A stretch of DNA of 18,533 bases from a virus (lineage: Duplodnaviria > Heunggongvirae > Uroviricota > Caudoviricetes). Positions 511-17,630 of this stretch are shown in pieces; the first letter of the stretch is position 1; each line of letters opens with the position of its first letter. The stretch covers positions 1 to 18,533 of IMG/VR virus record IMGVR_UViG_2541047722_000018, one strand, 5' to 3'. The notes under the pieces were generated by a model that was not told the origin of the DNA, did no database searches, and was given only the letters and a program-made list of their open reading frames with translations. Position numbers and translations under genes: made by a program.

Positions 511-713
511 TGAAGACCTTTGCGCTACAGGGCGACACGCTCGACGCCATTTGTGTCCGGTATTACGGGCGCACTGAGGGCGTGGTCGAGACTGTGCTCG
601 CCGCAAATCCGGGACTGGCTGAACTGGGTGCGGTGCTGCCGCACGGCACCGCCGTCGAACTGCCCGACGTTCAGACCGCGCCCGTGGCTGAAACTGTCAA
701 TCTGTGGGAGTAA
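510..713 (+). CDS. X: Tail protein X (P2 gpX-like), 67 aa
   Basis: ATG at 510 overlaps L stop; product MKTFALQGDTLDAICVRYYGRTEGV... has P2 gpX size and position. The track ORF 441..713 is an upstream over-extension. Confidence 0.8.
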   Translation: MKTFALQGDTLDAICVRYYGRTEGVVETVLAANPGLAELGAVLPHGTAVELPDVQTAPVAETVNLWE

Positions 714-716
714 CGC

Positions 717-1495: not shown

Positions 1496-1509
1496 ACGGA
1501 GTAAACACC

Positions 1510-1935: not shown

Positions 1936-2348
1936 TGACTGTGCTGGTTGTGTTGTTATCACTGGCGGTGGCCGGTCTGTTTCTGGTGAAGCATGAAAAC
2001 GCCAGCCTGCGCACCTCGCTGGACAGGGCGAACAGTGTCGCCAGCGGGCAGCAGACGACCATCACCATGCTGAAAAATCAGCTTCATGTTGCGCTCACCA
2101 GGGCAGACAAAAACGAGCTGGCGCAGGTTGCACTGCGTCAGGAGCTGGAGAACGCCGCGAAGCGTGAAGCACAGCGCGAGAAAACCATCACGAGGTTACT
2201 CAATGAAAACGAAGATTTTCGCCGCTGGTACGGTGCTGACCTGCCTGATGCTGTGCGCCGGTTGCACCAGCGCCCCGCCTGCACTGACGCCAGTGATTGT
2301 CCCCAACGCCTGCCCGAAAGTGAGTCTTTGCCCGATGCCGGGCAGTGA
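1923..2348 (+). CDS. lysB: Inner-membrane spanin LysB (Rz-like), 141 aa
   Basis: N-terminal transmembrane segment (LMTVLVVLLSLAVAGLFLV) followed by a charged, coiled-coil-like periplasmic region; overlaps the lysA end; P2 lysB size. Confidence 0.75.
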   Translation: MSKLMTVLVVLLSLAVAGLFLVKHENASLRTSLDRANSVASGQQTTITMLKNQLHVALTRADKNELAQVALRQELENAAKREAQREKTITRLLNENEDFRRWYGADLPDAVRRLHQRPACTDASDCPQRLPESESLPDAGQ

Positions 2349-2493
2349 CCCGCAGACGAACGGCGATTTAAGTGCCGATATCCGGCAGCTTGAGAACGCG
2401 CTGGCACGGTGTGCCAGCCAGATAAAAATGATTAAACACTGTCAGGACGAAAACGATGCTCAAACCCGACAGCCTGCGCAGGGCGCTGACTGA
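2203..2493 (+). CDS. lysC: Outer-membrane spanin LysC (Rz1-like lipoprotein), 96 aa
   Basis: ATG at 2203 inside the lysB 3' end in a different frame; signal peptide with lipobox (LMLCAG-C) and a proline-rich mature part; runs into the R start. Track ORF 2086..2493 over-extends upstream. Confidence 0.7.
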   Translation: MKTKIFAAGTVLTCLMLCAGCTSAPPALTPVIVPNACPKVSLCPMPGSDPQTNGDLSADIRQLENALARCASQIKMIKHCQDENDAQTRQPAQGAD

Positions 2494-2923
2494 TGCCGTC
2501 ACGGTGCTGAAAACTAACCCCGATATGCTGCGGATATTCGTGGATAACGGGAGTATTGCCTCCACACTGGCGACGTCGCTGTCATTCGAAAAGCGTTACA
2601 CGCTCAATGTCATTGTGACCGACTTTACCGGTGATTTTGACCTGCTCATCGTGCCGGTGCTGGCGTGGCTGCGGGAAAATCAGCCCGACATCATGACCAC
2701 CGACGAAGGCCAGAAAAAGGGCTTCACGTTTTATGCAGACATCAACAATGACAGCAGCTTTGATATCAGCATCAGTCTGATGCTGACCGAGCGCACGCTG
2801 GTCAGTGAGGTGGACGGCGCACTGCATGTGAAGAATATCCCGGAACCTCCGCCGCCGGAGCCGGTCACCCGCCCGGTGGAGTTGTATATCAATGGCGAAC
2901 TGGTGAGCAAGTGGGATGAATGA
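2456..2923 (+). CDS. R: Tail completion protein (P2 gpR-like), 155 aa
   Basis: Size and position as P2 R; overlaps the lysC end and the S start. Confidence 0.8.
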   Translation: MLKPDSLRRALTDAVTVLKTNPDMLRIFVDNGSIASTLATSLSFEKRYTLNVIVTDFTGDFDLLIVPVLAWLRENQPDIMTTDEGQKKGFTFYADINNDSSFDISISLMLTERTLVSEVDGALHVKNIPEPPPPEPVTRPVELYINGELVSKWDE

Positions 2924-3368
2924 GTTTAAGCGTTTTGAAGACCGGCTGACCGGGCTGATTGAATCGCTGTCACCGTCAGGGCGTCGGCGACTGAGTGCCG
3001 AACTGGCGAAACGTCTGCGTCAGAGTCAGCAACGTCGGGTGATGGCACAGAAAGCCCCGGACGGCACACCCTATGCGCCACGCCAGCAGCAGAGCGCCAG
3101 AAAAAAGACCGGTCGTGTTAAGCGAAAAATGTTTGCGAAACTTATCACCAGTCGCTTTTTGCATATCCGCGCCAGCCCGGAACAGGCATCAATGGAGTTT
3201 TACGGCGGAAAGTCACCGAAAATCGCCAGTGTGCATCAGTTCGGTCTGTCGGAAGAAACCCGGAAAGACGGTAAGAAAATTGATTATCCGGCGCGTCCTC
3301 TGCTCGGCTTTACCGGTGAGGATGTGCAGATGATTGAAGAGATTATCCTGGCTCACCTTGACCGTTAG
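2916..3368 (+). CDS. S: Tail completion protein (P2 gpS-like), 150 aa
   Basis: Size and position as P2 S; start ATG overlaps the R stop (ATGAATGA). Confidence 0.8.
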   Translation: MNEFKRFEDRLTGLIESLSPSGRRRLSAELAKRLRQSQQRRVMAQKAPDGTPYAPRQQQSARKKTGRVKRKMFAKLITSRFLHIRASPEQASMEFYGGKSPKIASVHQFGLSEETRKDGKKIDYPARPLLGFTGEDVQMIEEIILAHLDR

Positions 3369-3434
3369 TTGTGCCATTCCCGACACCTCATCGTCACATT
3401 GCCGCCGGTATGACCCGGCGGCATCCTTCCCGTT

Positions 3435-4070
3435 ATGAACACTCTCGCAAATATTCAGGAACTCGCGCGCGCACTGCGCAACATGATTCGCACCGGCGTT
3501 ATCGTCGAAACCGACCTTAACGCCGGTCGCTGCCGTGTGCAGACCGGCGGCATGTGCACCGACTGGCTTCAGTGGCTGACCCATCGCGCCGGGCGTTCGC
3601 GCACATGGTGGGCACCTTCCGTGGGGGAACAGGTGCTGATTCTGGCCGTGGGCGGTGAACTTGACACGGCGTTTGTTCTGCCGGGGATTTATTCCGGTGA
3701 TAACCCCGCGCCGTCTGCGTCGGCGGATGCCCTGCATATCCGTTTCCCTGACGGGGCGGTGATTGAGTATGAACCCGAAACCAGTGCACTCACGGTAAGC
3801 GGAATTAAAACGGCCAGCGTGACGGCTTCTGATTCTGTTACCGCCACGGTGCCGGTGGTCATGGTGAAAGCGTCAACCCGCGTCACCCTGGACACACCGG
3901 AGGTGGTCTGCACCAACAGGCTGATTACTGGCACGCTGGAAGTACAGAAGGGCGGGACGATGCGCGGCAACATTGAACACACCGGTGGTGAACTCTCATC
4001 AAACGGTAAGGTACTGCATACCCATAAACACCCCGGCGACAGCGGCGGCACAACCGGGGGACCTCTATGA
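3435..4070 (+). CDS. V: Baseplate spike/assembly protein (P2 gpV-like), 211 aa
   Basis: First gene after a 66-bp gap, consistent with the start of the V-W-J-I-H-G late operon; size matches P2 gpV. Confidence 0.85.
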   Translation: MNTLANIQELARALRNMIRTGVIVETDLNAGRCRVQTGGMCTDWLQWLTHRAGRSRTWWAPSVGEQVLILAVGGELDTAFVLPGIYSGDNPAPSASADALHIRFPDGAVIEYEPETSALTVSGIKTASVTASDSVTATVPVVMVKASTRVTLDTPEVVCTNRLITGTLEVQKGGTMRGNIEHTGGELSSNGKVLHTHKHPGDSGGTTGGPL

Positions 4071-4414
4071 CTGCGCGTTATCTCGGAATGAATCGCAGTG
4101 ATGGCCTGACTGTCACTGACCTTGAGCATATCAGCCAGAGTATCGGCGATATCCTGCGCACGCCGGTCGGCTCACGGGTGATGCGTCGTGATTACGGTTC
4201 GTTGCTGGCGTCAATGATTGACCAGCCGCAGACCCCGGCGCTTGAGTTGCAGATTAAGGTCGCCTGTTACATGGCGGTGCTGAAATGGGAACCCCGCGTC
4301 ACCCTGTCATCCGTCACCACGGCGCGCAGTTTTGACGGGCGAATGACGGTCACGTTAACCGGTCAGCACAACGACACCGGCCAGCCACTTTCGTTAACCA
4401 TCCCTGTGAGTTGA
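4067..4414 (+). CDS. W: Baseplate wedge protein (P2 gpW-like, T4 gp25 family), 115 aa
   Basis: Overlaps the V stop (ATGA); size and order as P2 W. Confidence 0.85.
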   Translation: MTARYLGMNRSDGLTVTDLEHISQSIGDILRTPVGSRVMRRDYGSLLASMIDQPQTPALELQIKVACYMAVLKWEPRVTLSSVTTARSFDGRMTVTLTGQHNDTGQPLSLTIPVS

Positions 4415-4418
4415 AACC

Positions 4419-5327
4419 ATGCCGATTATCGACCTGAACCAGCTACCCGCACCGGATGTGGTTGAGGAGCTGGACTTTGAAACCATTCTTGCCGAACGCA
4501 AGGCGACACTGATTTCCCTTTACCCGGAAGACCAGCAGGAGGCGGTCGCCCGTACCCTGACGCTGGAATCCGAGCCTCTCGTCAAACTGCTGGAGGAAAA
4601 TGCTTATCGTGAGCTTATCTGGCGTCAGCGTGTGAATGAGGCCGCACGGGCGGTAATGCTGGCCAGTGCCGCCGGTAATGACCTTGATGTGATTGGTGCC
4701 AATTACAATACCACGCGCCTGATTATCACCCCGGCAGATGATTCGACCATCCCGCCGACACCGGCAGTAATGGAATCTGACACTGATTATCGTCTGCGTA
4801 TTCAGCAGGCGTTTGAAGGTTTAAGCGTCGCCGGGTCGGTGGGTGCCTATCAGTATCATGGCCGCAGTGCCGACGGGCGTGTCGCGGATATCTCTGTCAC
4901 CAGTCCGTCTCCGGCCTGTGTCACCATCTCTGTGCTGTCACGTGAAAATAACGGTGTCGCATCCGAAGACCTGCTGGCCGTGGTGCGTAACGCCCTTAAT
5001 GGTGAGGACGTCAGGCCGGTGGCTGACCGTGTGACCGTGCAGTCTGCCGCCATTGTTGAATACCAGATAAACGCCACGCTTTACCTTTACCCTGGTCCCG
5101 AAAGCGAACCCATCCGCGCGGCCGCCGTGAAAAAGCTGGAAGCGTACATCACGGCACAGCACCGGCTGGGGCGCGACATCCGTCTGTCTGCCATTTATGC
5201 CGCTTTGCATGTGGAAGGCGTGCAGCGTGTCGAGCTGGCGGCACCACTGGCCGACATCGTGCTCAACAGTACGCAGGCGTCTTTCTGTACCGAATACCGC
5301 GTCGTGACCGGAGGCTCGGATGAGTGA
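4419..5327 (+). CDS. J: Baseplate protein (P2 gpJ-like), 302 aa
   Basis: Size and order as P2 J. Confidence 0.85.
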   Translation: MPIIDLNQLPAPDVVEELDFETILAERKATLISLYPEDQQEAVARTLTLESEPLVKLLEENAYRELIWRQRVNEAARAVMLASAAGNDLDVIGANYNTTRLIITPADDSTIPPTPAVMESDTDYRLRIQQAFEGLSVAGSVGAYQYHGRSADGRVADISVTSPSPACVTISVLSRENNGVASEDLLAVVRNALNGEDVRPVADRVTVQSAAIVEYQINATLYLYPGPESEPIRAAAVKKLEAYITAQHRLGRDIRLSAIYAALHVEGVQRVELAAPLADIVLNSTQASFCTEYRVVTGGSDE

Positions 5328-5850
5328 TTCGCGACTGCTGCCGACCGGCTCATCACCGCTTGAAGTCGCCGCTGCAAAAGCCTGTGCGGAAATTGAAAAA
5401 ACGCCGGTCAGTATTCGTGAGCTGTGGAACCTGGACACCTGCCCGGCAAATCTGCTGCCGTGGCTGGCGTGGGCGTTTTCGGTCGACAGATGGGATGAAA
5501 AGTGGCCGGAAGCGACCAAACGCGCCGTTATACGCGATGCCTATTTCATCCACTGTCATAAAGGCACTATAGGTGCAATCCGGCGTGTGGTGGAGCCGCT
5601 GGGCTATCTCATCAACGTGACGGAGTGGTGGGAAACCAGTGACCCGCCCGGCACCTTCCGGCTTGATATTGGTGTACTGGAAAGCGGTATCACAGAGGCA
5701 ATGTATCAGGAAATGGAACGGCTGATTGCTGATGCCAAACCTGCAAGCCGTCACCTTATTGGCCTGAACATTATCCAGGACATTCCCGGCTGTCTGTATA
5801 CAGGCGGTGTGGTCTGTGATGGTGATGTTATTACTGTTTATCCCGGATAA
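5320..5850 (+). CDS. I: Baseplate/tail protein (P2 gpI-like), 176 aa
   Basis: Overlaps the J end by 8 nt; size and order as P2 I. Confidence 0.8.
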   Translation: MSDSRLLPTGSSPLEVAAAKACAEIEKTPVSIRELWNLDTCPANLLPWLAWAFSVDRWDEKWPEATKRAVIRDAYFIHCHKGTIGAIRRVVEPLGYLINVTEWWETSDPPGTFRLDIGVLESGITEAMYQEMERLIADAKPASRHLIGLNIIQDIPGCLYTGGVVCDGDVITVYPG

Positions 5851-5860
5851 GTGAGAAACA

Positions 5861-8647
5861 ATGAGCACGAAATTTAAAACCGTTATCACTACTGCCGGAG
5901 CCGCAAAGCTGGCAGCCGCCACTGTCCCCGGCGGGAAAAAAGTAAACCTGTCTGCAATGGCCGTGGGTGACGGTAATGGCAAATTGCCGGTGCCGGATGC
6001 CGGTCAGACGAAACTGGTGCATGAGGTCTGGCGTCACGCTCTGAATAAAGTCAGCGTGGATAACAAGAATAAAAACTATATCGTGGCTGAACTGGTTGTA
6101 CCGCCAGAAGTGGGCGGCTTCTGGATGCGTGAACTTGGTCTGTATGACGATGCCGGAACACTGATTGCGGTATCCAACATGGCAGAAAGCTATAAGCCAG
6201 AACTGGCTGAAGGCTCCGGACGTGCGCAGACCTGCCGCATGGTTATTATTCTCAGCAACGTGGCGTCCGTTGAGCTGAGTATTGATGCCAGCACGGTGAT
6301 GGCGACGCAGGATTACGTCGATGACAAAATCGCAGAGCATGAGCAGTCCCGCCGCCATCCTGACGCCACGCTGACAGAAAAAGGTTTTACTCAGTTAAGC
6401 AGTGCAACAAACAGCACCAGTGAAAAGCTGGCAGCAACGCCAAAGGCAGTAAAAGCAGCCTATGACAATGCTGAAAAACGTATGCAGAAAGACCAGAACG
6501 GTGGCGATATTCCAGATAAGGGCGCTTTTCTGGACAATGTTGGCGTTACCAGCCTGACGTTTATGAAAAACAATGGCGAAATGCCGCTTGATGCTGATCT
6601 GAATACATTTGGTCCCGTTAAGGCTTATCTGGGGATCTGGTCTAAAGCTACCTCAACTAACGCAACACTGGAGAAAAATTTTCCGGAAGATAATGCTGTC
6701 GGTGTGCTTGAGGTTTTTGCTGCCGGCAATTTTGCAGGTACGCAACGCTTCACCACGAGAGACGGCAATGTATACATACGCAGACTCGCCAATAAGTGGA
6801 ATGGCTCTGATGGTCCGTGGGGCATATGGCGTCACACTCAATCAGCTACCCGCCCTTTGAGTACGACTATAGACCTGAATACGCTTGGAGCCGCCGAACA
6901 TCTTGGTTTATGGCGTAACAGTAGCTCGGCTATAGCTTCATATGAACGCAATTATCCAGAGGAAGGCGGCTTTGCTCAGGGGATGCTTGAGATCCTCGAA
7001 GGCGGGAATTATGGAAGAACGCAACGTTATACCACTCGCCGTGGAAATATGTATGTCCGCTGCCTTGCGGCAAGCTGGGATGTATCAAATCCGCAGTGGG
7101 AACCGTGGTTAAGAGTCGGTCATCAGTCAGAGAGTCGTTATTACGAAGGTGATTTAAATGTTCTAACCGACCCCGGTATTTACAGTGTTACAGGAAAGGC
7201 AACAAACGGTCCGATGCTGGACACCGTTGGCGCGACACTACTTGGGATACTGGAAGTAATCAGACGTTTTGATGGTGTGTCTGTCTGGCAGCGTTACACA
7301 ACCACAGGGAAATCAGAAACCACACAGGGACGCACTTTTGAGCGCGTCTACGCCGGGAGCAAATGGACCGAATGGCGAGAAGTATATAACTCCTTTTCGT
7401 TGCCTCTGAATCTGGGCATCGGTGGCGCAGTGGCAAAACTATCCAGTCTGGACTGGCAGACCTACGATTTTGTGCCGGGCAGTCTGATAACCGTGCGGCT
7501 TGATAACATGACCAACATTCCCGACGGTATGGACTGGGGCGTCATTGATGGCAACCTGATAAACATCGCAGTTGGTCCGAGTGATGATTCCGGTACGGGA
7601 CGCTCAATGCATGTATGGCGAAGCACTGTAAGTAAAGCCAACTACCGCTTTTTTATGGTGCGCGTTTCAGGAAATCCGGGAAGCCGCACGATTACAACAA
7701 GACGAGTACCAATCATTGACGAAGCCCAGACATGGGGCGCGAAACAGACATTCAGTGCTGGCCTTTCTGGTGAACTGTTCGGCAATGCTGCGACAGCAAC
7801 AAAGCTGAAAACAGCCCGTAAAATTAATAACGTTTCGTTTGATGGAACATCAGATATTAACCTGACGCCTGAAGATATTGGTGCATTGCCAATAACGGGA
7901 GGAACTCTTACCGGCGGTTTAACTGCTGCTGGCGAGATTATTTCCAAATCGGCGAATGGTCTTCGTATTGCCTATGGCAACTATGGATTCTTTATCCGAA
8001 ACGATGGTTCAAGCACATACCTCATGTTGACCAATTCGGGCGACAGCCTGGGAACATGGAATAGTTTAAGGCCGCTTACCATTAATAACGCCAGTGGAGC
8101 TGTTTCTATCGGTAATAGTTTAACTGTTAATGGTGATATAGGAACCAATGCTTGGGTATATGCAAATCGTTTTGCAATTAATAGCAGTACCGGAATGTGG
8201 ATAAATATGCGTGACCAGAATGTTATTTTTGGACGTAATGCGGTATCCACCGATGGTGCTCAGGCATTGTTACGTCAGGACCATGCTGATCGCAAATTTA
8301 TGATTGGTGGTCTGGGGAATAAGCAATTTGGCATCTACATGATTAATAATTCAAGGACAGCCAATGGCACCGATGGTCAGGCGTACATGGATAATAACGG
8401 GAATTGGCTTTGCGGTGCGCAAGTTATTCCCGGCAATTATGGTAATTTTGACTCACGCTATGTGAGAGATGTCAGACTTGGCACACGTGTTGTTCAGACC
8501 ATGCAAAAAGGCGTGATGTATGAAAAATCAGGTCATGTAATCACGGGGCTTGGTATTGTCGGTGAAGTCGATGGTGATGACCCCGCAGTATTCAGACCAA
8601 TACAAAAATACATCAATGGCACATGGTATAACGTCGCACAGGTGTAA
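5861..8647 (+). CDS. H: Tail fibre protein (P2 gpH-like N-terminus, divergent repeat-containing distal region), 928 aa
   Basis: N-terminus MSTKFKTVITTAGAAKLAAA... is the conserved P2-type fibre anchor. It is longer than the 669 aa I recall for P2 H. It has three tandem ~92-aa repeats, a GGTLTGGL motif common in enterobacterial phage fibres, and a visibly more AT-rich distal part. Confidence 0.85.
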   Translation: MSTKFKTVITTAGAAKLAAATVPGGKKVNLSAMAVGDGNGKLPVPDAGQTKLVHEVWRHALNKVSVDNKNKNYIVAELVVPPEVGGFWMRELGLYDDAGTLIAVSNMAESYKPELAEGSGRAQTCRMVIILSNVASVELSIDASTVMATQDYVDDKIAEHEQSRRHPDATLTEKGFTQLSSATNSTSEKLAATPKAVKAAYDNAEKRMQKDQNGGDIPDKGAFLDNVGVTSLTFMKNNGEMPLDADLNTFGPVKAYLGIWSKATSTNATLEKNFPEDNAVGVLEVFAAGNFAGTQRFTTRDGNVYIRRLANKWNGSDGPWGIWRHTQSATRPLSTTIDLNTLGAAEHLGLWRNSSSAIASYERNYPEEGGFAQGMLEILEGGNYGRTQRYTTRRGNMYVRCLAASWDVSNPQWEPWLRVGHQSESRYYEGDLNVLTDPGIYSVTGKATNGPMLDTVGATLLGILEVIRRFDGVSVWQRYTTTGKSETTQGRTFERVYAGSKWTEWREVYNSFSLPLNLGIGGAVAKLSSLDWQTYDFVPGSLITVRLDNMTNIPDGMDWGVIDGNLINIAVGPSDDSGTGRSMHVWRSTVSKANYRFFMVRVSGNPGSRTITTRRVPIIDEAQTWGAKQTFSAGLSGELFGNAATATKLKTARKINNVSFDGTSDINLTPEDIGALPITGGTLTGGLTAAGEIISKSANGLRIAYGNYGFFIRNDGSSTYLMLTNSGDSLGTWNSLRPLTINNASGAVSIGNSLTVNGDIGTNAWVYANRFAINSSTGMWINMRDQNVIFGRNAVSTDGAQALLRQDHADRKFMIGGLGNKQFGIYMINNSRTANGTDGQAYMDNNGNWLCGAQVIPGNYGNFDSRYVRDVRLGTRVVQTMQKGVMYEKSGHVITGLGIVGEVDGDDPAVFRPIQKYINGTWYNVAQV
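6599..7385 (+). repeat. Three tandem ~92-aa (276-279 nt) protein-level repeats inside tail fibre H
   Basis: Repeat units start at 6599, 6875 and 7154, each beginning with an LNT/LNV motif and sharing an ...L(E)VxxxGN(F/Y)xxTQR(F/Y)TTRxGNxYxRxLAxxW... core. Confidence 0.6.
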
Positions 8648-8650
8648 TTT

Positions 8651-9178
8651 ATGCAGCATTTAAAAAATATTACTGCGGGTAATCCAAAAACTGTTGCCCA
8701 ATATCAACTGACAAAAAATTTTGATGTTATCTGGTTATGGTCCGAAGAGGGAAAAAACTGGTATGAGGAAGTAAGTAATTTTCAGGAAGACACGATAAAG
8801 ATTGTTTACGACGAGAATAATATAATTGTCGGCATCACCAGAGATGCTTCAACGCTCAACCCTGAAGGTTTTAGCGTTGTCGAGGTTCCTGATATTACCG
8901 CCAACCGACGTGCTGATGACTCAGGTAAATGGATGTTTAAGGATGGTGCCGTGATTAAGCGGATTTATACGGCAGACGAACAGCAACAACAGGCAGAATC
9001 ACAAAAGGCCGCGTTACTTTCCGAAACCGAATCCGTGATTTTGCCGCTGGAGCGCGCTGTCAGGCTGAATATGGCAACAGATGAGGAGCGCAGTCGACTG
9101 GAAGCATGGGAACGCTACAGCGTTCTGGTCAGTCGTGTGGATCCTGCAAATCCTGAATGGCCGGAAATGCCGCAATAA
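8651..9178 (+). CDS. G: Tail fibre assembly protein / chaperone (P2 gpG, Tfa family), 175 aa
   Basis: Directly after H; size as P2 G; AT-rich like the distal part of H; ends ...[12 protein letters not shown]. Confidence 0.8.
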
Positions 9179-9331
9179 GTTGTATGAGCTCTGGTGGGAG
9201 CTTACATATCTATGGCACAGAGTAAAGCCTAATCTGACAGTCCGCTCTGTGCTAGGAGCGGACATTGTTGCCATCTATCTGCATAAATCTGTGGGGAGCT
9301 GCTCACTTGTGGGGAATGAGTCCTCAACTGT

Positions 9332-9360
9332 TTGCGTTTATAAACACAATCCTTTAGATT
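9332..9360 (+). promoter_or_regulatory. Candidate sigma70 promoter for the cargo ORF
   Basis: TTGCGT (9332-9337), 17-nt spacer, TAGATT (9355-9360), about 30 nt upstream of the cargo start; each hexamer matches consensus at 4/6 only. Confidence 0.3.
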
Positions 9361-9390
9361 CTCTCCTACTATCTACTAAAATTTTATCTA

Positions 9391-10518
9391 GTGAAAATGC
9401 CCAATAATCATATGTATGCAAGTCTACTGTCTTACAAAAACTTAAAGATGGCACATCAAGGAAGTAACTTACGGTCTATTACTGAGTTTTCTCTCTATTC
9501 AGATAGTCAACCAATTGGGGCGGTTGATGATGATTCAGTTTATTGTTTTCTGAATATGTTACCCAGGATAACCAAACAATCCACCGTTGCATCTTCAATT
9601 ACAGTGCGCACAAAGTGGTATAGTGACTTAAATAATATGATTCTTTCTAGTTCTCAGAGTCATACAAAGGATTATCATGGTGGATGGTATAATGATGAAA
9701 TAGCTGCGCTTTCAAGTTTACTGCTTGGTGTCCGTTTTCATGCTGGGTCAATTACTCGTCACTATGATTACTACACAGGTGATTTCGGAAGGATCCAAGC
9801 GGAGAGTTCTTTTCCTCCCGTTTTAGAGTTTAAACATAACAAACCTATAGTTCCTAATGCTATCAAAGAAATTGATATAACTAACCTTAAAGAGCTTAAC
9901 AATTTACATCTCTTAAGTGAAAAGAATTTCAACCATTTAATTAGAGCAGCCAGAAGCTATCAAAATGCATTATGGATATGCGAGTCATCTCCAAATATGA
10001 GTTGGCTATTGATGGTGTCAGCCCTAGAATGTGCGGCTAATCAATGGGCAAAATCCAATGCGTCTAAAGAAGAAAGATTTAAACATGCCAAGCCTGAATT
10101 ATATGAAAAATTAGATACCAATGAATTTAGACATTTAATCTCTATTATTGCTAATGAGTTTAAAGATTCATTTGGGGCGACAAAGAAGTTTGTGGATTTC
10201 TGCCTGTATTTCCTTCCAGATGAACCTCAAGTGAGGCCAAAAGTAGGAAGAATTGATTGGGGAAAAGAATCGCTATCAACAACTTTTAAAAAAATATATA
10301 ACTACCGTTCTAAGGCATTGCATGGAGGACAACCATTTCCTGAGCCGATGTGTTCCTATCCTGAAGTATGGGATGGGTATATTGCTGAACGAGCGAGAGC
10401 ATGTTCAACCTTAGGTGGAACGTGGTTGAATGAAGATGTGCCAATTAATTTAAATACATTCAACTTTATGACCCATTCCATTTTGAATAAGTGGTGGCAA
10501 TCTTTATTACCAAGTTAA
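9391..10518 (+). CDS. Hypothetical protein, cargo gene at the G/FI variable locus; candidate anti-phage defence protein (possible C-terminal HEPN-like R-x4-H motif), up to 375 aa
   Basis: Single long ORF in an AT-rich island: hand count 20/60 G+C at its 5' end versus 33/60 at the start of FI. Start uncertain (GTG 9391, ATG 9397 or downstream ATGs; no strong SD). No transmembrane segments or P-loop seen. Occupies the P2 Z/fun position. Confidence 0.6.
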   Translation: MKMPNNHMYASLLSYKNLKMAHQGSNLRSITEFSLYSDSQPIGAVDDDSVYCFLNMLPRITKQSTVASSITVRTKWYSDLNNMILSSSQSHTKDYHGGWYNDEIAALSSLLLGVRFHAGSITRHYDYYTGDFGRIQAESSFPPVLEFKHNKPIVPNAIKEIDITNLKELNNLHLLSEKNFNHLIRAARSYQNALWICESSPNMSWLLMVSALECAANQWAKSNASKEERFKHAKPELYEKLDTNEFRHLISIIANEFKDSFGATKKFVDFCLYFLPDEPQVRPKVGRIDWGKESLSTTFKKIYNYRSKALHGGQPFPEPMCSYPEVWDGYIAERARACSTLGGTWLNEDVPINLNTFNFMTHSILNKWWQSLLPS

Positions 10519-10540
10519 CACTGTAAGTATCAGTGTTAAC
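10514..10540. repeat. Perfect 10-bp inverted repeat overlapping the cargo stop codon
   Basis: GTTAACACTG (10514-10523), 7-nt spacer, CAGTGTTAAC (10531-10540). Confidence 0.6.
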
Positions 10541-10609
10541 TGCACCATGTAATTTTATATCTGTACCAGACTGGAGGAAAATGTTCGCTTATCGCTCATT
10601 AGGGTCAAC

Positions 10610-10648
10610 CATACTCAAATCTCTCACATTGCAGGAGATTTGAGTATG
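10610..10648. repeat. Perfect 14-bp inverted repeat with 11-nt spacer
   Basis: CATACTCAAATCTC (10610-10623), spacer tcacattgcag, GAGATTTGAGTATG (10635-10648). Confidence 0.6.
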
Positions 10649-10671
10649 AACACGTCACCGTGGAAGGACTG

Positions 10672-10694
10672 GCGGGCGAATTGCCCGCTTTTTT
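10672..10694 (+). terminator. Rho-independent terminator downstream of the cargo ORF
   Basis: GCGGGC-gaatt-GCCCGC stem-loop followed by TTTTTT on the + strand. Confidence 0.6.
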
Positions 10695-10792
10695 GTATCT
10701 GTTGTTTCATCCACTGACCAGCCAGGTCAAATAGCGTCTCATGCTCTGCACAACAGAAAATAGTTGCACCCATTAACCACGGAGTTAAACGG

Positions 10793-11983
10793 ATGAGTGA
10801 CTATCATCACGGCGTGCAGGTGCTGGAGATTAACGACGGCACCCGCGTCATTTCCACCGTATCCACCGCCATTGTTGGCATGGTCTGCACGGCCAGCGAT
10901 GCGGATGCGGAAACCTTCCCCGTCAATAAACCGGTGCTGATCACCAATGTGCAGAGCGCGATTGCAAAGGCCGGTAAAAAAGGTACGCTGGCGGCATCGT
11001 TGCAGGCCATCGCTGACCAGTCAAAACCGGTCACCGTTGTCGTGCGCGTGGAAGACGGCACCGGCGACGACGAAGAAACGAAACTCGCGCAGACCGTTTC
11101 CAATATCATCGGCACCACTGACGAAAACGGTCAGTACACCGGACTGAAAGCCCTGATGGGCGCAGAGTCGGTTACCGGCGTTAAACCGCGCATTCTCGGC
11201 GTACCGGGACTGGACACCAAAGAGGTGGCGGTTGCACTGGCATCGGTATGCCAGGAACTGAATGCCTTCGGGTATATCAGCGCATGGGGCTGTAAAACCA
11301 TTTCCGAGGCAAAAGCCTACCGTCAGAATTTCAGTCAGCGTGAGCTGATGGTCATCTGGCCGGATTTCCTTGCATGGGATACGGTCACCAGTACCACCGC
11401 CACCGCGTATGCCACCGCCCGTGCGCTGGGGCTGCGTGCCAAAATCGACCAGGAGCAGGGCTGGCATAAAACGCTGTCCAACGTCGGGGTAAACGGTGTT
11501 ACCGGCATCAGCGCATCTGTATTCTGGGATTTGCAGAAGTCTGGCACTGATGCTGACCTGCTGAACGAGGCAGGCGTCACAACGCTGGTTCGCCGCGACG
11601 GTTTCCGTTTCTGGGGTAACCGTACCTGCTCCGATGACCCACTTTTCCTCTTTGAAAGCTACACACGTACCGCGCAGGTACTGGCCGACACGATGGCTGA
11701 GGCGCACATGTGGGCTATTGATAAGCCCATCACCGCAACGCTGATTCGCGACATCATTGATGGCATCAATGCCAAATTCCGCGAACTGAAAAACAACGGT
11801 TATATCGTGGATGGCACATGCTGGTTCAGTGAAGAAGCCAACGATGCGGAAACCCTCAAGGCCGGAAAACTGTATATCGACTACGACTATACACCGGTGC
11901 CTCCTCTCGAAAACCTGACCCTGCGCCAGCGTATTACTTCAAGATACCTGGCAAGTCTGGTCACCTCGGTTAACAGCAATTAA
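10793..11983 (+). CDS. FI: Contractile tail sheath protein (P2 gpFI-like), 396 aa
   Basis: GGAG RBS before the ATG; size and order as P2 FI; first gene of the FI-FII-E-T-U-D operon. Confidence 0.9.
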   Translation: MSDYHHGVQVLEINDGTRVISTVSTAIVGMVCTASDADAETFPVNKPVLITNVQSAIAKAGKKGTLAASLQAIADQSKPVTVVVRVEDGTGDDEETKLAQTVSNIIGTTDENGQYTGLKALMGAESVTGVKPRILGVPGLDTKEVAVALASVCQELNAFGYISAWGCKTISEAKAYRQNFSQRELMVIWPDFLAWDTVTSTTATAYATARALGLRAKIDQEQGWHKTLSNVGVNGVTGISASVFWDLQKSGTDADLLNEAGVTTLVRRDGFRFWGNRTCSDDPLFLFESYTRTAQVLADTMAEAHMWAIDKPITATLIRDIIDGINAKFRELKNNGYIVDGTCWFSEEANDAETLKAGKLYIDYDYTPVPPLENLTLRQRITSRYLASLVTSVNSN

Positions 11984-11995
11984 GGAGCCTGACCG

Positions 11996-12514
11996 ATGGC
12001 AATGCCGCGCAAACTCAAGTTAATGAACGTCTTTCTGAACGGCTACAGCTATCAGGGCGTTGCAAAGTCCGTCACGCTGCCAAAACTGACCCGTAAGCTC
12101 GAAAACTATCGCGGTGCGGGGATGAACGGCAGCGCACCGGTAGACCTCGGCCTTGATGACGATGCGCTGTCAATGGAGTGGTCGCTCGGTGGCTTCCCGG
12201 ATTCGGTTATCTGGGAGCTTTACGCCGCAACCGGTGTGGATGCCGTGCCGATTCGTTTTGCAGGCTCTTACCAGCGCGACGATACCGGCGAAACGGTGGC
12301 CGTCGAAGTGGTCATGCGTGGACGTCAGAAAGAAATCGACACCGGCGAGGGTAAACAGGGAGAAGACACCGAGTCGAAAATCTCCGTGGTCTGCACCTAT
12401 TTCCGGCTGACGATGGACGGTAAGGAGCTGGTCGAAATCGACACCATCAACATGATTGAGAAGGTGAACGGCGTCGACCGGCTGGAGCAACACCGCCGCA
12501 ATATCGGCCTGTGA
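11996..12514 (+). CDS. FII: Tail tube protein (P2 gpFII-like), 172 aa
   Basis: AGGAG RBS; size and order as P2 FII. Confidence 0.9.
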   Translation: MAMPRKLKLMNVFLNGYSYQGVAKSVTLPKLTRKLENYRGAGMNGSAPVDLGLDDDALSMEWSLGGFPDSVIWELYAATGVDAVPIRFAGSYQRDDTGETVAVEVVMRGRQKEIDTGEGKQGEDTESKISVVCTYFRLTMDGKELVEIDTINMIEKVNGVDRLEQHRRNIGL

Positions 12515-12570
12515 TTTTCATCCGGTCAGCCTGGCTGACCGGTTAACCCCGATTCAGAAGTGAGAAAACC

Positions 12571-12846
12571 ATGAACAAAGAAAATGTGATTACCCTGGAC
12601 AATCCGGTCAAGCGTGGTGAGCAGGTTATCGAACAGGTCACGCTGATGAAACCCAATGCCGGGACGCTGCGCGGTGTCAGTCTGGCTGCGGTCGCAAACT
12701 CCGAAGTCGATGCACTGATTAAGGTGCTGCCGCGCATGACGGCACCGATGCTGACCGAGCAGGAGGTCGCCGCGCTGGAACTGCCTGACCTTGTGGCGCT
12801 GGCCGGTAAGGTGGTCGGTTTTTTGTCTCCGAACTCGGTGCAGTGA
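12571..12846 (+). CDS. E: Tail assembly chaperone E (P2 gpE-like), 91 aa
   Basis: Size and position as P2 E; contains the slippery site T-TTT-TTG near its 3' end. Confidence 0.8.
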   Translation: MNKENVITLDNPVKRGEQVIEQVTLMKPNAGTLRGVSLAAVANSEVDALIKVLPRMTAPMLTEQEVAALELPDLVALAGKVVGFLSPNSVQ

Positions 12847-12998
12847 CGTTTCCGAAAAATCTGTCGGTCGATGACCTGATGGCAGATGTGGCAGTGATAT
12901 TTCACTGGCCGCCATCAGAACTGTATCCCATGAGCCTGACCGAACTCATCACATGGCGCGAAAAGGCGCTCCGGCGAAGCGGAAACACGAATGAGTAA
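12571..12998 (+). CDS. E+E': Tail assembly chaperone fusion E+E' made by a programmed -1 translational frameshift
   Basis: Slippery heptamer T TTT TTG at 12819-12825; after a -1 slip the frame stays open (..VSELGAVTFPKNL...RRSGNTNE) to TAA at 12996-12998, overlapping the T start codon. Analogous to the P2 E/E' and lambda G/GT arrangement. Confidence 0.65.
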
Positions 12999-15438
12999 CA
13001 ATGTAAAATTACAGGTATTGCTCAGGGCTGTTGACCAGGCATCCCGCCCGTTTAAATCCATCCGCACAGCGAGTAAGTCGCTGTCGGGGGATATCCGGGA
13101 AACACAAAAATCACTGCGCGAGCTGAACGGTCACGCATCCCGTATTGAGGGATTCCGCAAGACCAGTGCACAGCTCGCCGTGACTGGTCATGCACTTGAA
13201 AAGGCACGGCAGGAAGCCGAAGCCCTTGCCACACAGTTTAAAAACACCGAACGTCCGACCCGTGCTCAGGCGAAAGTGCTGGAATCCGCAAAGCGTGCGG
13301 CGGAGGACTTACAGGCGAAATATAACCACCTGACGGATTCCGTTAAACGCCAGCAACGGGAACTGGCCGTTGTGGGAATTAATACCCGCAATCTTGCACA
13401 TGATGAGCAGGGACTGAAAAACCGTATCAGTGAAACCACCGCACAACTTAACCGTCAGCGTGACGCGCTGGCGCGTGTCAGTACGCAACAGGCAAAACTT
13501 AACGCAGTAAAACAGCGTTATCAGGCCGGAAAGGAACTGGCCGGAAATATGGCCTCGGTAGGCGCTGCCGGTGTGGGGATTGCGGCGGCGGGAACGATGG
13601 CCGGAGTTAAGCTGCTGATGCCCGGTTATGAGTTTGCGCAGAAAAACTCAGAATTGCAGGCCGTGCTAGGAGTGGCAAAAGACTCCGCCGAAATGGCCGC
13701 GCTACGCAAACAGGCGCGCCAGCTCGGCGACAACACAGCCGCCTCGGCGGATGATGCAGCAGCAGCTCAAATCATCGTGGCTAAATCAGGAGCGGATAAA
13801 AATGGCATCTTGGCACAAACACCGGCCATTTTGAATATGTCACTGGCAAACAAGAAAACGATGGAGGAAAACGCCACTTTACTTATTGGGACAAAATCGG
13901 CATTCGGGCTTGCTGATGATAAGGCTTCCCATATTGCTGATGTTATTTCAATGACGATGAATAAATCGCAAGCCACATTCGAGGGACTAAGTGATTCACT
14001 TACCTATGTCGGGCCAGTGGCAAAAGATGCAGGTGTCAGCTTGGAAGAAACAGCAGCAATGTTAGGTGCATTACACGATGCAAATATCAGTGGGTCTATG
14101 GCTGGCACAGGAAGTCGAGCAGTACTGAGTCGTTTGCAGGCACCAACCGGGAAAGCGTATGACGCTATTAAAGAGCTTGGCGTAAAGACAACTGACAGCA
14201 AAGGTAATACGCGACCTGTCTTTTCAATTCTGAAAGAAATTCAGCGGAGTTTTGAAAAAAATAAACTAGGAACAGGGCAGCGCGCTGAATACATGAAAAC
14301 AATATTCGGCGAAGAGGCCAGCTCATCAGCAAGTGTATTAATGACAGCAGCAGCCAGCGGCAAGCTGGATAATCTGACCAGGTTGATTAAAGAATCTGAC
14401 GGTAAAACAGAAGAACTGGTTAAGGTTATGCAGGACAACCTCGGCGGTGACTTTAAGGAGTTTCAGTCCGCTTATGAGGCGGTGGGGACTGACCTGTTTG
14501 ACCAGCAGGAAGGCGCACTGCGTAAGCTCACGCAGACGGCCACAAATTATGTGTTAAAACTCGACGGCTGGATCCAGAAAAACAAATCACTGGCGTCAAC
14601 CATCGGCATCATTGCCGGTGGCGCGCTGGCGCTGACTGGCATCATCGGTGCCATTGGTCTTGTCGCCTGGCCGGTTATCACCGGCATCAATGCCATCATC
14701 GCGGCAGCAGGCGCAATGGGGGCAATCTTCACGACGGTTGGCAGTGCCGTTATGACGGCCATCGGGGCGATTAGCTGGCCGGTTGTGGCCGTGGTGGCCG
14801 CCATTGTCGCCGGGGCGTTGCTTATCCGTAAATACTGGGAGCCTGTCAGCGCATTCTTTGGCGGTGTGGTTGAAGGGCTTAAAGCGGCATTTGCGCCGGT
14901 GGGGGAACTGTTCACGCCACTTAAACCGGTTTTTGACTGGCTGGGGGAAAAGTTACAGGCCGCGTGGCAGTGGTTTAAAAATCTGATTGCCCCGGTCAAA
15001 GCCACCCAGGACACCCTGAACCGTTGCCGTGACACGGGGGTCATGTTCGGGCAGGCACTGGCTGACGCGCTGATGCTGCCGCTTAATGCGTTCAACAAAC
15101 TGCGCAGCGGCATTGACTGGGTACTGGAAAAACTCGGTGTTATCAACAAAGAGTCAGACACACTTGACCAGACCGCCGCCAGAACTCAAGCCGCCACGTA
15201 TGGCAGCGGTGGTTATATTCCGGCGACCAGCTCTTATGCAGGCTATCAGGCTTATCAGCCGGTCACGGCACCGGCTGGCCGCTCTTATGTAGACCAGAGT
15301 AAAAACGAATATCACATCAGCCTGACGGGTGGTACTGCGCCGGGGACACAGCTTGACCGCCAGTTACAGGATGCGCTCGAAAAATACGAGCGGGATAAAC
15401 GTGCGCGCGCCCGTGCCAGCATGATGCATGACGGTTAA
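12991..15438 (+). CDS. T: Tail tape measure protein (P2 gpT-like), 815 aa
   Basis: Large alpha-helical protein with a central Gly/Ala-rich hydrophobic segment; size and order as P2 T. Confidence 0.85.
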   Translation: MSNNVKLQVLLRAVDQASRPFKSIRTASKSLSGDIRETQKSLRELNGHASRIEGFRKTSAQLAVTGHALEKARQEAEALATQFKNTERPTRAQAKVLESAKRAAEDLQAKYNHLTDSVKRQQRELAVVGINTRNLAHDEQGLKNRISETTAQLNRQRDALARVSTQQAKLNAVKQRYQAGKELAGNMASVGAAGVGIAAAGTMAGVKLLMPGYEFAQKNSELQAVLGVAKDSAEMAALRKQARQLGDNTAASADDAAAAQIIVAKSGADKNGILAQTPAILNMSLANKKTMEENATLLIGTKSAFGLADDKASHIADVISMTMNKSQATFEGLSDSLTYVGPVAKDAGVSLEETAAMLGALHDANISGSMAGTGSRAVLSRLQAPTGKAYDAIKELGVKTTDSKGNTRPVFSILKEIQRSFEKNKLGTGQRAEYMKTIFGEEASSSASVLMTAAASGKLDNLTRLIKESDGKTEELVKVMQDNLGGDFKEFQSAYEAVGTDLFDQQEGALRKLTQTATNYVLKLDGWIQKNKSLASTIGIIAGGALALTGIIGAIGLVAWPVITGINAIIAAAGAMGAIFTTVGSAVMTAIGAISWPVVAVVAAIVAGALLIRKYWEPVSAFFGGVVEGLKAAFAPVGELFTPLKPVFDWLGEKLQAAWQWFKNLIAPVKATQDTLNRCRDTGVMFGQALADALMLPLNAFNKLRSGIDWVLEKLGVINKESDTLDQTAARTQAATYGSGGYIPATSSYAGYQAYQPVTAPAGRSYVDQSKNEYHISLTGGTAPGTQLDRQLQDALEKYERDKRARARASMMHDG

Positions 15439-15452
15439 GGAGGTGACGAAAA

Positions 15453-15932
15453 ATGATGCTCGCGTTAGGTATGTTTGTTTTTATGCGCCAGACGCTGCCA
15501 CACCAGACCATGCAGCGTGAATCAGATTATCGCTGGCCGTCAAATTCCCGTATCGGCAAACGGGATGCCTTTCAATTTCTCGGTGTGGGTGAGGAAAACA
15601 TCACGCTTGCCGGTGTGCTTTATCCCGAACTGACCGGCGGAAAGCTGACGATGACCACGCTCAGGCTGATGGCAGAGGAAGGCCGGGCGTGGCCGTTGCT
15701 GGATGGCACCGGCATGATTTATGGCATGTATGTCATCAGTAAGGTGAGTGAAACAGGGAGTATTTTCTTTGCAGACGGCACACCCCGGAAAATTGATTTT
15801 ACGCTGTCGCTCACCCGCGTTGATGAATCACTGGCCGCGCTTTATGGCGATATCGGTAAACAGGCGGAATCGCTCATCGGTAAGGCTGGCAGTATAGCGA
15901 CTAAATTCACGGGTATGACGGAGGCGGGATAA
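15453..15932 (+). CDS. U: Tail protein (P2 gpU-like), 159 aa
   Basis: AGGAGG RBS; size and order as P2 U. Confidence 0.85.
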   Translation: MMLALGMFVFMRQTLPHQTMQRESDYRWPSNSRIGKRDAFQFLGVGEENITLAGVLYPELTGGKLTMTTLRLMAEEGRAWPLLDGTGMIYGMYVISKVSETGSIFFADGTPRKIDFTLSLTRVDESLAALYGDIGKQAESLIGKAGSIATKFTGMTEAG

Positions 15933-17095
15933 TGCTGGATGCGCTGACATTTGATGCAGGCAGTACGCTGACGCCGGATTACATGCTGATGCTCGACAGC
16001 AGGGATATTACCGGCAATATCAGCGACCGTCTGATGAGCATGACCCTGACGGATAACCGGGGCTTTGAGGCTGACCAGCTTGATATTGAACTGAACGATG
16101 CCGACGGGCAGGTCGGACTGCCGGTTCGTGGCGCTGTCCTGACGGTGTATATCGGCTGGAAAGGTTTTGCCCTGGTATGCAAAGGGAAATTTACCGTTGA
16201 TGAGGTTGAACACCGGGGCGCACCGGATGTGGTCACCATCCGCGCCCGGAGTGCAGATTTTCGCGGGACGCTCAATTCCCGCCGTGAAGGCTCCTGGCAT
16301 GACACCACGCTCGGTGCGATTGTTGAGGCGATAGCCTCCCGTAACAGGCTGGAAGCCAGTGTCGCGCCGTCACTGGCAGGAATTAAAATCCCGCACATCG
16401 ACCAGTCGCAGGAGTCTGATGCGAAATTCCTGACCCGTCTTGCAGAACGCAACGGCGGTGAGGTGTCGGTAAAAATGGGAAAACTGTTGTTTCTCAAAGC
16501 GGGGCAGGGGGTGACGTCCAGCGGTAAAAAAATCCCGCAGATTACCATCACCCGCAGCGACGGCGACCGTCATCATTTTGCGATTGCTGACCGTGGAGCC
16601 TATACCGGCGTAACGGCAAAGTGGTTACACACCAAAGACCCGAAGCCGCAAAAGCAGAAGGTAAAACTGAAACGCAAAAAGAAAGAGAAACACCTGCGCG
16701 CACTGGAGCACCCGAAAGCGAAACCAGTCACGCAGAAGAAAGCGCCAAAAGTACCGGAAGCGCGCGAAGGTGAATACATGGCCGGTGAGGTTGATAACGT
16801 TTTTGCCCTGACCACGGTATATGCCACGAAAGCACAGGCCATGCGTGCCGCTCAGGCGAAGTGGGATAAGCTGCAACGGGGTGTAGCGGAGTTCTCCATC
16901 AGCCTGGCTACTGGTCGGGCAGATATTTACACGGAAACACCGGTTAAAGTGTCAGGCTTTAAGCGCGTCATAGACGAGCAGGACTGGACAATCACTAAGG
17001 TGACACATTTTCTGAATAATAGCGGCTTCACGACGTCCTTAGAGCTTGAGGTCAGGCTTTCTGATGTGGAGCACGAAACAGAAGATGATGAGTGA
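15932..17095 (+). CDS. D: Tail protein (P2 gpD-like), 387 aa
   Basis: Start overlaps the U stop (TAATG); size and order as P2 D; contains a Lys-rich low-complexity linker. Confidence 0.85.
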   Translation: MLDALTFDAGSTLTPDYMLMLDSRDITGNISDRLMSMTLTDNRGFEADQLDIELNDADGQVGLPVRGAVLTVYIGWKGFALVCKGKFTVDEVEHRGAPDVVTIRARSADFRGTLNSRREGSWHDTTLGAIVEAIASRNRLEASVAPSLAGIKIPHIDQSQESDAKFLTRLAERNGGEVSVKMGKLLFLKAGQGVTSSGKKIPQITITRSDGDRHHFAIADRGAYTGVTAKWLHTKDPKPQKQKVKLKRKKKEKHLRALEHPKAKPVTQKKAPKVPEAREGEYMAGEVDNVFALTTVYATKAQAMRAAQAKWDKLQRGVAEFSISLATGRADIYTETPVKVSGFKRVIDEQDWTITKVTHFLNNSGFTTSLELEVRLSDVEHETEDDE

Positions 17096-17176
17096 TGTAA
17101 TTTATTTATCTGTTTGTTTTATAAGGATAAATTAACTAAAATGGCACCATCAACAAAACCGGAAGAGGTGCTCGCG

Positions 17177-17395
17177 ATGTTTCATTGTCCTTTATGCCAG
17201 CATGCCGCACATGCGCGTACAAGCCGCTATATCACTGACACGACAAAAGAGCGTTATCACCAGTGTCAGAACGTGAATTGCAGCGCCACATTCATCACTT
17301 ATGAGTCGGTACAGCGATACATCGTGAAGCCGGGAGAAGTCCACGCCGTAAGACCGCACCCGTTGCCGTCAGGGCAGCAAATTATGTGGATGTGA
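17177..17395 (+). CDS. ogr: Late-gene transcriptional activator Ogr (zinc-finger, 72 aa)
   Basis: MFHCPLCQHAAHARTSRYITDTTKERYHQCQNVNCSATF... matches my recollection of P2 Ogr, with a C-x2-C...C-x4-C zinc-binding pattern. ATG at 17177 has an AGAGG RBS; the track ORF from 17114 is an over-extension. Confidence 0.9.
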   Translation: MFHCPLCQHAAHARTSRYITDTTKERYHQCQNVNCSATFITYESVQRYIVKPGEVHAVRPHPLPSGQQIMWM

Positions 17396-17405
17396 TCACA
17401 AAAAT

Positions 17406-17430
17406 AGCCCCTCAGTCGAGGGGCTTATTT
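17406..17430. terminator. Stem-loop terminator after ogr (possibly bidirectional)
   Basis: AGCCCCTC-agtc-GAGGGGCT with T-rich tracts on both sides. Confidence 0.55.
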
Positions 17431-17521
17431 ATGGTCGATGTGGACGCTATGTGGACAGTGGTTGACATAAATCCATTTATATCATCAGGTTAGGTGCTTT
17501 TTTGTGACACCATCCCTGTCT
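17431..17521. other. Probable attR region of the prophage (integrase arm-type direct repeats plus core); exact core not determinable from this window
   Basis: Lies between the last phage gene (ogr) and host sequence. ATGTGGAC occurs twice (17438-17445 and 17449-17456) with 11-bp periodicity. Confidence 0.35.
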
Positions 17522-17548
17522 TCCCCCACATGATGTGGGGGTTTTTTT
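17522..17548 (+). terminator. Rho-independent terminator, probably the host cpxP (CpxQ 3'-UTR sRNA) terminator
   Basis: CCCCCAC-atgat-GTGGGGG followed by eight T; located just upstream of fieF, where cpxP sits in E. coli. Confidence 0.6.
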
Positions 17549-17630
17549 TATCCTCAATTTGCCTGCTGCTTAATGCATTGCAGATGATTTGCTTCCGTTA
17601 TACTACCGTCAGTTGATAGCGGGAGTATTT

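Follow-up and report, generated by a model that had tools for sequence, protein, structure and literature searches.

A prophage cargo protein with a predicted HEPN ribonuclease domain in the Z/fun hotspot of a P2-like prophage: a candidate for single-protein defence

Does an Arg-x4-His (R-x4-H) motif near the C-terminus of a protein encoded by a P2-like prophage belong to a genuine HEPN ribonuclease (RNase), and may such an enzyme take part in defence against infection? The question is raised by a DNA stretch of 18,533 nucleotides (positions 1–18,533 of the IMG/VR record IMGVR_UViG_2541047722_000018; the whole stretch is called the window below), which represents the late-gene region of this prophage and in which a variable cassette carries one cargo gene for a protein of 375 amino acid residues. 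It may be concluded with considerable confidence that the HEPN domain of the protein is genuine and that its active site looks functional. It is also probable, at a lower level of certainty, that the cargo is a single-protein, infection-activated HEPN RNase acting in defence. Most likely, it represents a new, unmodelled family within a known kind of proteins, namely the HEPN abortive-infection RNases carried as prophage morons. The coordinates of all the features discussed are collected in Table 1.

The motif was first noticed in the peptide KKIYNYRSKALHGGQPF, which the initial annotation placed at positions 10303–10329 and in the C-terminal quarter of the protein. Both statements proved to be correct. 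In the frame of the cargo open reading frame (ORF), the codons tac cgt tct aag gca ttg cat gga gga encode Y305, R306, S307, K308, A309, L310, H311, G312 and G313, with R306 at 10306–10308 and H311 at 10321–10323, so that the motif is located at 82% of the protein length. An R-x4-6-H pattern occurs only once in the 375 residues. However, the bare R-x4-H pattern is at chance level, since at least one copy was found in 41% of 5000 composition-preserving shuffles of the protein (mean 0.52 per shuffle), which bears out the earlier warning that a motif as short as this is weak evidence by itself.

The motif is raised above chance because it is conserved across the family. Conservation was counted in an alignment of 309 homologues, which are 27–98% identical to the query. 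H311 is present in all 309 sequences and R306 in 308, and the neighbouring positions are nearly as strict (Y303 309/309, S307 and L310 307/309 each). Two residues far from the motif, E213 and W205, are also found in each of the 309 sequences. The most conserved stretch of the whole family is Y-x-x-R-S-x-A-L-H-x-G-x-P-F-P-x-P-M, which includes the motif itself and the loop directly following the histidine.

The structure of the protein was predicted with AlphaFold2 as a single chain from a 42-sequence alignment. The model is confident (mean predicted local distance difference test, pLDDT, 91.7; predicted template modelling score, pTM, 0.90) and consists of an alpha+beta N-terminal domain (residues 1–160) and an all-helical C-terminal domain (163–375). 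The long core helices of the latter cover residues 177–196, 201–221, 292–312 and 354–372. A helical insert (222–291) with four short helices within 226–273 separates core helices 2 and 3, and residues 313–353 between core helices 3 and 4 form a loop or insert with a beta-hairpin. Natural variants show which of these parts can be lost: the 222–291 insert is absent in the homologues P0092 and P0095, and the insert between helices 3 and 4 is absent in P0099. Two further variants differ at the domain level. P0314 (243 residues, on a 98-kb contig) is a version consisting of the C-terminal domain only, and P0230 (461 residues) is extended at its C-terminus by a sequence of the helix-hairpin-helix type (GIGTKLASNVISYR...AGMGQKTAAAI), which suggests an added nucleic-acid-binding tail.

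This anatomy corresponds well to that of the HEPN superfamily, in which the Rx4-6H motif stands where helix 3 ends and the loop to helix 4 starts, the arginine is directly followed by a polar residue (mostly N, D or H), helix 2 contains a conserved acidic residue, typically within E-x3-[K/R], and a variable insert often occurs between helices 2 and 3 (PMC3710099). In the model, the C-terminal domain is a four-helix up-down bundle with an insert between helices 2 and 3, R306 and H311 are located at the C-terminal end of the helix that occupies the place of helix 3, and the invariant E213 lies in core helix 2, where it is predicted to complete the active site. About 17 of the 20 top structural matches are HEPN domains or the related C-terminal domains of nucleotidyltransferases, and AbiV, AbiA, Cas13h1 and LsoA are also present in the two lists of structural matches. 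Thus, the HEPN effector that the initial annotation supposed at the C-terminus is supported, and the structure prediction named there as a check was positive, giving an all-helical domain with the motif closing helix 292–312.

Several observations weigh against this assignment. The residue after the arginine, S307, is polar but falls outside the usual N, D or H. E213 does not belong to an E-x3-[K/R] motif, as the +4 position is occupied by N217 and K/R is not conserved there. No HEPN match was obtained in Pfam, either for the query at E up to 10 or for all 42 members of the alignment at E up to 1. NCBIfam, PHROGs and PADLOC also gave no HEPN match to the query, and PADLOC gave none for the 42 members at E up to 10. 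A Foldseek search against the PDB yielded no match (best E 2.1). The sole sequence-profile match in the PDB, obtained with both full-length and C-domain alignments, was a stretch of a catalase at E 0.4–1, and it was dismissed as chance. Profile matches to Erf4 and DUF1896 at E 0.06–0.2 were dismissed as noise. Membership in the HEPN superfamily is therefore supported by the fold and the active-site anatomy and not by any sequence profile.

In the most sceptical interpretation, R-x4-H is a chance motif in a generic helical bundle and the resemblance to HEPN proteins is an artefact of comparing all-alpha folds. The shuffling result and the missing profile matches could be read in this way; the conservation of the motif across the family and its place at the end of helix 3 make this interpretation very improbable. 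It is somewhat less improbable, but still hardly to be expected, that the fold is of the HEPN type and the protein is not a nuclease, so that the domain binds a nucleotide, a nucleic acid or a protein, as in the C-terminal domains of nucleotidyltransferases and in sacsin, and any catalysis takes place elsewhere, for example at the polar cluster of the N-terminal domain. Non-catalytic HEPN domains, however, are typically devoid of Rx4-6H (PMC3710099), whereas the arginine, the histidine, the serine and the glutamate of helix 2 are essentially invariant here over the 309 sequences, down to 27% identity. In our opinion, a HEPN domain with an apparently functional active site is the better description of the C-terminal half of the protein.

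The location of the gene is the second source of evidence. In the window, the genes are arranged from left to right as head completion, lysis, baseplate, tail fibre, sheath, tube, tape measure, gpD and ogr; host fieF comes next. The cargo cassette, 1.4 kb long with approximate borders, lies between the tail fibre assembly gene, which is similar to gene G of P2, and the tail sheath gene, which is similar to FI. A variable insert between these two genes is what distinguishes the Z/fun hotspot of P2. It corresponds to the place of P2 fun, reported to be a second defence-enriched locus of P2 from which three validated systems were obtained (PMC9519451), and the same site has been named the Z/fun hotspot (10.1101/2024.10.15.618418). 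The guanine–cytosine (GC) content is 36–38% in the cassette versus 53–59% in the phage backbone. The intergenic ends flanking the cassette were found in 1584 of 5426 complete genomes of Escherichia coli, and the cargo itself in 5 of the 5426.

Other cargos were observed at the same G/FI site. In E. coli A13 (L004, 1835–2713), it carries a DUF4145 protein of 292 residues with R-x7-H in RFMGNDAAH, and in E. coli TW10590 (L005, 1716–2615), a protein of 299 residues without a Pfam match. DUF4145 is a HEPN family (PMC3710099), so HEPN effectors recur at the Z/fun hotspot. Comparison of the cargo protein with the A13 and TW10590 cargos by hhalign revealed no relation; with the single DUF4145 protein, the probability was 0.2%. 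DUF4145 is a poor comparator because of the R-x7-H spacing in the A13 protein.

The distribution of the family is broad. A word-index search gave 99 homologues, and an exhaustive hidden Markov model (HMM) search of 1.84 billion cluster representatives (clusters at 50% identity) gave 1829 clusters at E≤1e-3, including 839 at E≤1e-30. The best 150 HMM matches are all about 370–400 residues long and align end to end. A second word-index search and the exhaustive HMM search, both also directed at other architectures and Pfam-annotated distant relatives, produced lists that were filled by full-length members. Among the hosts are Proteobacteria, Acidobacteriota, Planctomycetota, cyanobacteria, Actinomycetota, Chloroflexota, Spirochaetia and archaea represented by metagenome-assembled genomes (MAGs), which indicates wide horizontal spread and a patchy, mobile distribution. 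Archaeal members were found in MAGs of Methanophagales and Methanobacteriota (L024, L025; 39% identity), actinomycete members in Streptomyces and Kitasatospora (L081–L095; 26–30% identity), and one Spirochaetia genome contains two copies (L068, L075).

Some homologues lie on or beside mobile elements. The homologue of Klebsiella is situated at a prophage edge beside an integrase gene, that of Kosakonia adjoins IS3 and an integrase gene, and homologues in viral contigs stand beside either the gene of the small terminase subunit or that of the gpV spike. In Klebsiella quasipneumoniae (L007/L008, ~6126–6200), the homologue is 73% identical, and a sequence similar to the 3'-end of a transfer RNA (tRNA) is located directly past its stop codon (GGTTCAAATCC ... 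GCCGACCA). This suggests a prophage boundary of the attachment (att) type, at which the homologue would be the last gene of the prophage, adjoining the integrase. In a P2-like contig from IMG/VR (L013, 4001–5131), a 53%-identical homologue adjoins the gpV baseplate spike gene and a gene for a protein with a DUF4062 domain. Because this homologue occupies a different P2-like site, the cassette is not tied to one hotspot.

Defence genes occur near some homologues, and one homologue is embedded in a type I restriction-modification (R-M) operon, beside Vsr and the cytosine methylase Dcm. Among the 142 nearest ORFs of 75 genomic homologues, 111 Pfam families were recognised, and none was found more than three times; therefore, there is no conserved partner gene. 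The recurrent families are ResIII (three times) and GmrSD_N, Uma2, PLDc_2, SNF2 and PIN with DUF433 (twice each). This is a moderate sprinkling of defence and toxin–antitoxin genes.

The same neighbourhoods must be considered in relation to another explanation, in which the protein is a HEPN RNase and not an infection-triggered defence factor. It could be a toxin for prophage addiction or stabilisation, or an RNase serving the phage itself through the turnover of host RNA or the non-abortive exclusion of competitors. Eight records of P2-like phages carry the gene at 99.7% protein identity (seven of Yersinia pestis phages and one of Escherichia phage vB_EcoM-720R8), and the isolates from Y. pestis behave as virulent phages, which would agree with such a role. 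PIN/DUF433 toxin–antitoxin genes are among the neighbours, and several homologues, contrary to what defence would suggest, are surrounded by plain metabolic genes. One homologue is inserted in a parDE toxin–antitoxin locus. This is P0021 of Pectobacterium versatile (L006, 4790–6332), a protein of 443 residues that continues in frame after approximately 65 residues of ParE, directly past parD; it looks like a HEPN gene inserted into a parDE cassette, and it is annotated by NCBI as a RelE/ParE toxin because of the fusion behind truncated ParE. On the other side, neither a conserved antitoxin-like partner nor an RNA repeat was found, the hotspot position and the homologue embedded in the R-M operon point to defence, and those stand-alone HEPN proteins of prophages that have been characterised act in defence. 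An RNase without a defence function is thus unlikely, though it is the most serious of the alternatives. The defence function, which we infer from location and domain, is preferred.

Known anticodon nucleases of defence that consist of a single HEPN protein include ApeA, DARNA/PD-T7-3 and the prophage-encoded HepS. ApeA, a HEPN defence system of one gene (Gao et al. 2020; for the mechanism, see 10.64898/2026.01.26.701840), resembles the cargo in many respects. Both are single proteins without a partner, with a C-terminal HEPN domain that bears Rx4H on helix 3 and has an insert separating this helix from helix 4. In both, the N-terminal part is non-catalytic and contains conserved residues arranged like a pocket, and both are associated with R-M operons and mobile elements and are expected to follow the logic of abortive infection. 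One may ask, therefore, whether the cargo is simply a short, divergent member of ApeA (Apea-like HEPN) and not a separate family. Besides the shared single-gene organisation, C-terminal HEPN domain and embedding in an R-M operon, two family members bear the name 'Apea-like HEPN domain-containing protein' in UniRef. These two proteins, however, have no Pfam match at E up to 10, including HEPN_Apea and ApeA_NTD1; because current Pfam does not reproduce the match, the name is a lead only and not a test. PADLOC, with models of both known and candidate defence systems, recognised 0 of the 42 members. ApeA is also a much larger protein of about 580 residues with alpha-helical N-terminal and Mid domains, a split HEPN domain and decameric or dodecameric assembly, whereas the cargo has 375 residues, with a 160-residue alpha+beta N-terminal domain passing directly into the HEPN domain. 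Membership in ApeA thus has a low probability, about the same as that of a non-nuclease function, and a separate family is the preferred assignment.

HepS of the prophage Gifsy-1 (PMC13043305) is similar to the cargo as a prophage-encoded moron of the constitutive type with a single HEPN protein, a canonical Rx4H, no conserved neighbour and a frequent location on prophages. It is a minimal HEPN protein of less than 250 residues (R100/H105) without an extra domain and is activated by the siphovirus tail-tip protein J (PMC13043305). The cargo differs from it in having the additional N-terminal domain of 160 residues, and no sequence relation between the two was detected. In DARNA/PD-T7-3 (10.64898/2026.02.22.705581), the order of domains is reversed, with an N-terminal HEPN domain and a helical C-terminal domain of 300 residues, and the protein is a dodecamer activated by single-stranded DNA; the PADLOC model of DARNA had no match to the cargo family.

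The toxins RnlA and LsoA contain a HEPN-type DBD domain behind alpha/beta N-terminal domains and need the adjacent antitoxin genes rnlB or lsoB. The structural match of the cargo to RnlA/LsoA is weaker than to minimal HEPN proteins. Unlike in these systems and in HepT/MntA, no adjacent antitoxin gene exists in the cassette or as a conserved neighbour among the 142 ORFs. Unlike the type III HEPN/Abi systems with RNA antitoxins, the cargo gene has no tandem RNA repeats beside it and no Rfam match. The PD systems at the P2 fun position (Vassallo et al. 2022) share with the cargo the identical G/FI location and the organisation as a single low-GC cassette using the backbone terminator, whereas the cargo matches none of their PADLOC models. 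A literature search by protein accession found no paper.

On the basis of these comparisons, the following mechanism may be proposed. R306 and H311 at the end of core helix 3, aided by S307 and by E213 of helix 2, would form in the modelled structure a metal-independent RNA-cleaving site. By analogy with established HEPN biochemistry (PMC3710099), this site is probably shared by two subunits of a dimer that pair their Rx4H motifs. A composite active site within a dimer and metal-independent cleavage that leaves 2',3'-cyclic phosphate on the RNA are features of the HEPN superfamily. The nearly invariant loop G313-x-P-F-P-x-P-M, directly behind the catalytic histidine, is a possible dimer interface or active-site loop; in DARNA, the loop 121–134, following H122, is the HEPN dimer interface (10.64898/2026.02.22.705581). 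The gene is a stand-alone moron of the Z/fun hotspot; its expression in the lysogen is probable, as is termination of its transcript at the backbone terminator. The enzyme would remain inactive until it perceives a sign of infection, the N-terminal domain being the putative regulatory or sensing part. Once activated, it may cleave RNA of the cell or of the phage and halt the production of phage through abortive infection, as ApeA, DARNA and HepS do. In the characterised single-protein HEPN systems, the usual target is the anticodon loop of tRNAs. In this scheme, RNase activity, dimerisation and the role of the N-terminal domain are inferred, as are the trigger, the target RNA and a defence phenotype.

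The N-terminal domain contains a near-invariant cluster of polar residues (E32, D38, R73, H96, D102/E103, R115 and R123), and it is proposed to be a regulatory/sensor or substrate-binding domain. Such strict conservation of a polar pocket would be easier to explain if the sensed ligand were a conserved small molecule or a nucleic-acid product of infection than if it were a fast-evolving phage protein. A precedent for the sensing of a conserved ligand is provided by ApeA, for which the recognition of deoxydinucleotides was recently shown. A more far-reaching suggestion, that the cargo is the founding example of a large unmodelled group of single-protein HEPN immune RNases in which the polar pocket is a new sensor module coupled to HEPN, is tentative and less likely than not.

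The start codon also deserves attention. The ORF of 375 residues begins with GTG at 9391; alternative starts are ATG at 9397 (373 residues) and the RefSeq start, ATG at 9448 (M20; 356 residues). The homologues span query residues 1–375, N17 is present in 280 of the 287 sequences that have a residue at this position, helix 13–22 is modelled at pLDDT >90, and versions of 373 residues are annotated in many assemblies of E. coli. The true start is likely ATG 9397. The RefSeq start is probably too short, because it removes the conserved N17 and the structured helix 13–22.

Apart from the cargo gene, the cassette is simple. Neither a credible second ORF nor tandem or multi-copy direct repeats were found in it, Rfam gave no match at E≤1, and a promoter scan found 5 candidates versus 5.0 expected from shuffled sequences, so that none of them is proposed as a promoter. 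The 3' region (10500–10710) is unusually structured (minimum free energy −61.5 kcal/mol, z −3.5). It includes two perfect hairpins of the cassette and the terminator-like hairpin (10671–10689) with a T run, which belongs to the P2 backbone and would end the transcription of any cargo at this site. The two cassette hairpins are not conserved 3' of the homologues from Klebsiella and Kosakonia, and their possible roles are RNA stability, termination or a recombination scar.

Two observations concern the rest of the window. A GC content of 41–45% is already seen within 8001–9500, that is, in the 3' end of the tail-fibre gene (5861–8647) and in the fibre-assembly gene. This is consistent with a receptor-binding module that is exchanged as a separate segment, and such exchange has been reported at the Z/fun hotspot (10.1101/2024.10.15.618418). 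At the right side, the prophage ends after ogrK (17177–17395), and host fieF extends from 17631 past the window end (RefSeq, near-identical region of E. coli N21). The attachment junction is therefore within 17396–17630, as ogrK ends at 17395 and fieF begins at 17631.

Table 1. Coordinates of the cargo gene, its predicted domains and motifs, and the surrounding features in the window
Feature	Positions	Strand	Basis or remark
Tail fibre assembly gene (P2 G-like), left border of the hotspot	8651–9178	+	PHROG 136, E 5e-80; RefSeq
Variable cargo cassette, approximate borders	9267–10665	.	Identity to two P2-like prophages with other cargos ends at ~9266 and resumes at ~10666
Cargo ORF, 375 residues from GTG 9391	9391–10518	+	Sole long ORF of the cassette on either strand
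N-terminal alpha+beta domain, residues 1–160, with near-invariant polar cluster	9391–9870	+	
C-terminal HEPN-fold domain, residues 163–375	9877–10515	+	
Codon of E213, invariant acidic residue in core helix 201–221 (HEPN helix 2)	10027–10029	+	309/309; role per PMC3710099
Rx4H motif R306-S-K-A-L-H311, predicted catalytic centre	10306–10323	+	C-terminal end of helix 292–312; position per PMC3710099
Loop G313-x-P-F-P-x-P-M directly 3' of the catalytic His, nearly invariant	10327–10350	+	Conservation
Perfect 11-bp hairpin overlapping the stop codon, cassette-specific	10513–10541	+	
Perfect 14-bp hairpin in the 3' untranslated region of the cassette	10610–10648	+	
Intrinsic-terminator-like hairpin (10671–10689) with T run, P2 backbone	10671–10697	+	Conserved in two other prophages
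Tail sheath gene (P2 FI-like), right border of the hotspot	10793–11983	+	PHROG 23, E 4e-157; RefSeq

ApeA, DARNA and HepS currently belong to the clearest examples of a single polypeptide that can both perceive an infection and carry out abortive infection, and each new single-protein HEPN family has so far led to a different trigger. The family considered here is widespread and matched by no model of Pfam, NCBIfam, PHROGs or PADLOC, and its compact architecture of two domains includes a non-catalytic one that is strongly conserved. The hotspot in which it occurs has been validated experimentally for defence, and the E. coli phage concerned is well studied. The cargo is a clean and testable candidate for defence. 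If the protein is not defensive, the results still reveal a mis-annotated start codon and a family of 'hypothetical proteins' that can be renamed as HEPN-domain proteins. If the polar pocket of the N-terminal domain is indeed a ligand sensor, the family would provide a new sensor module coupled to HEPN.

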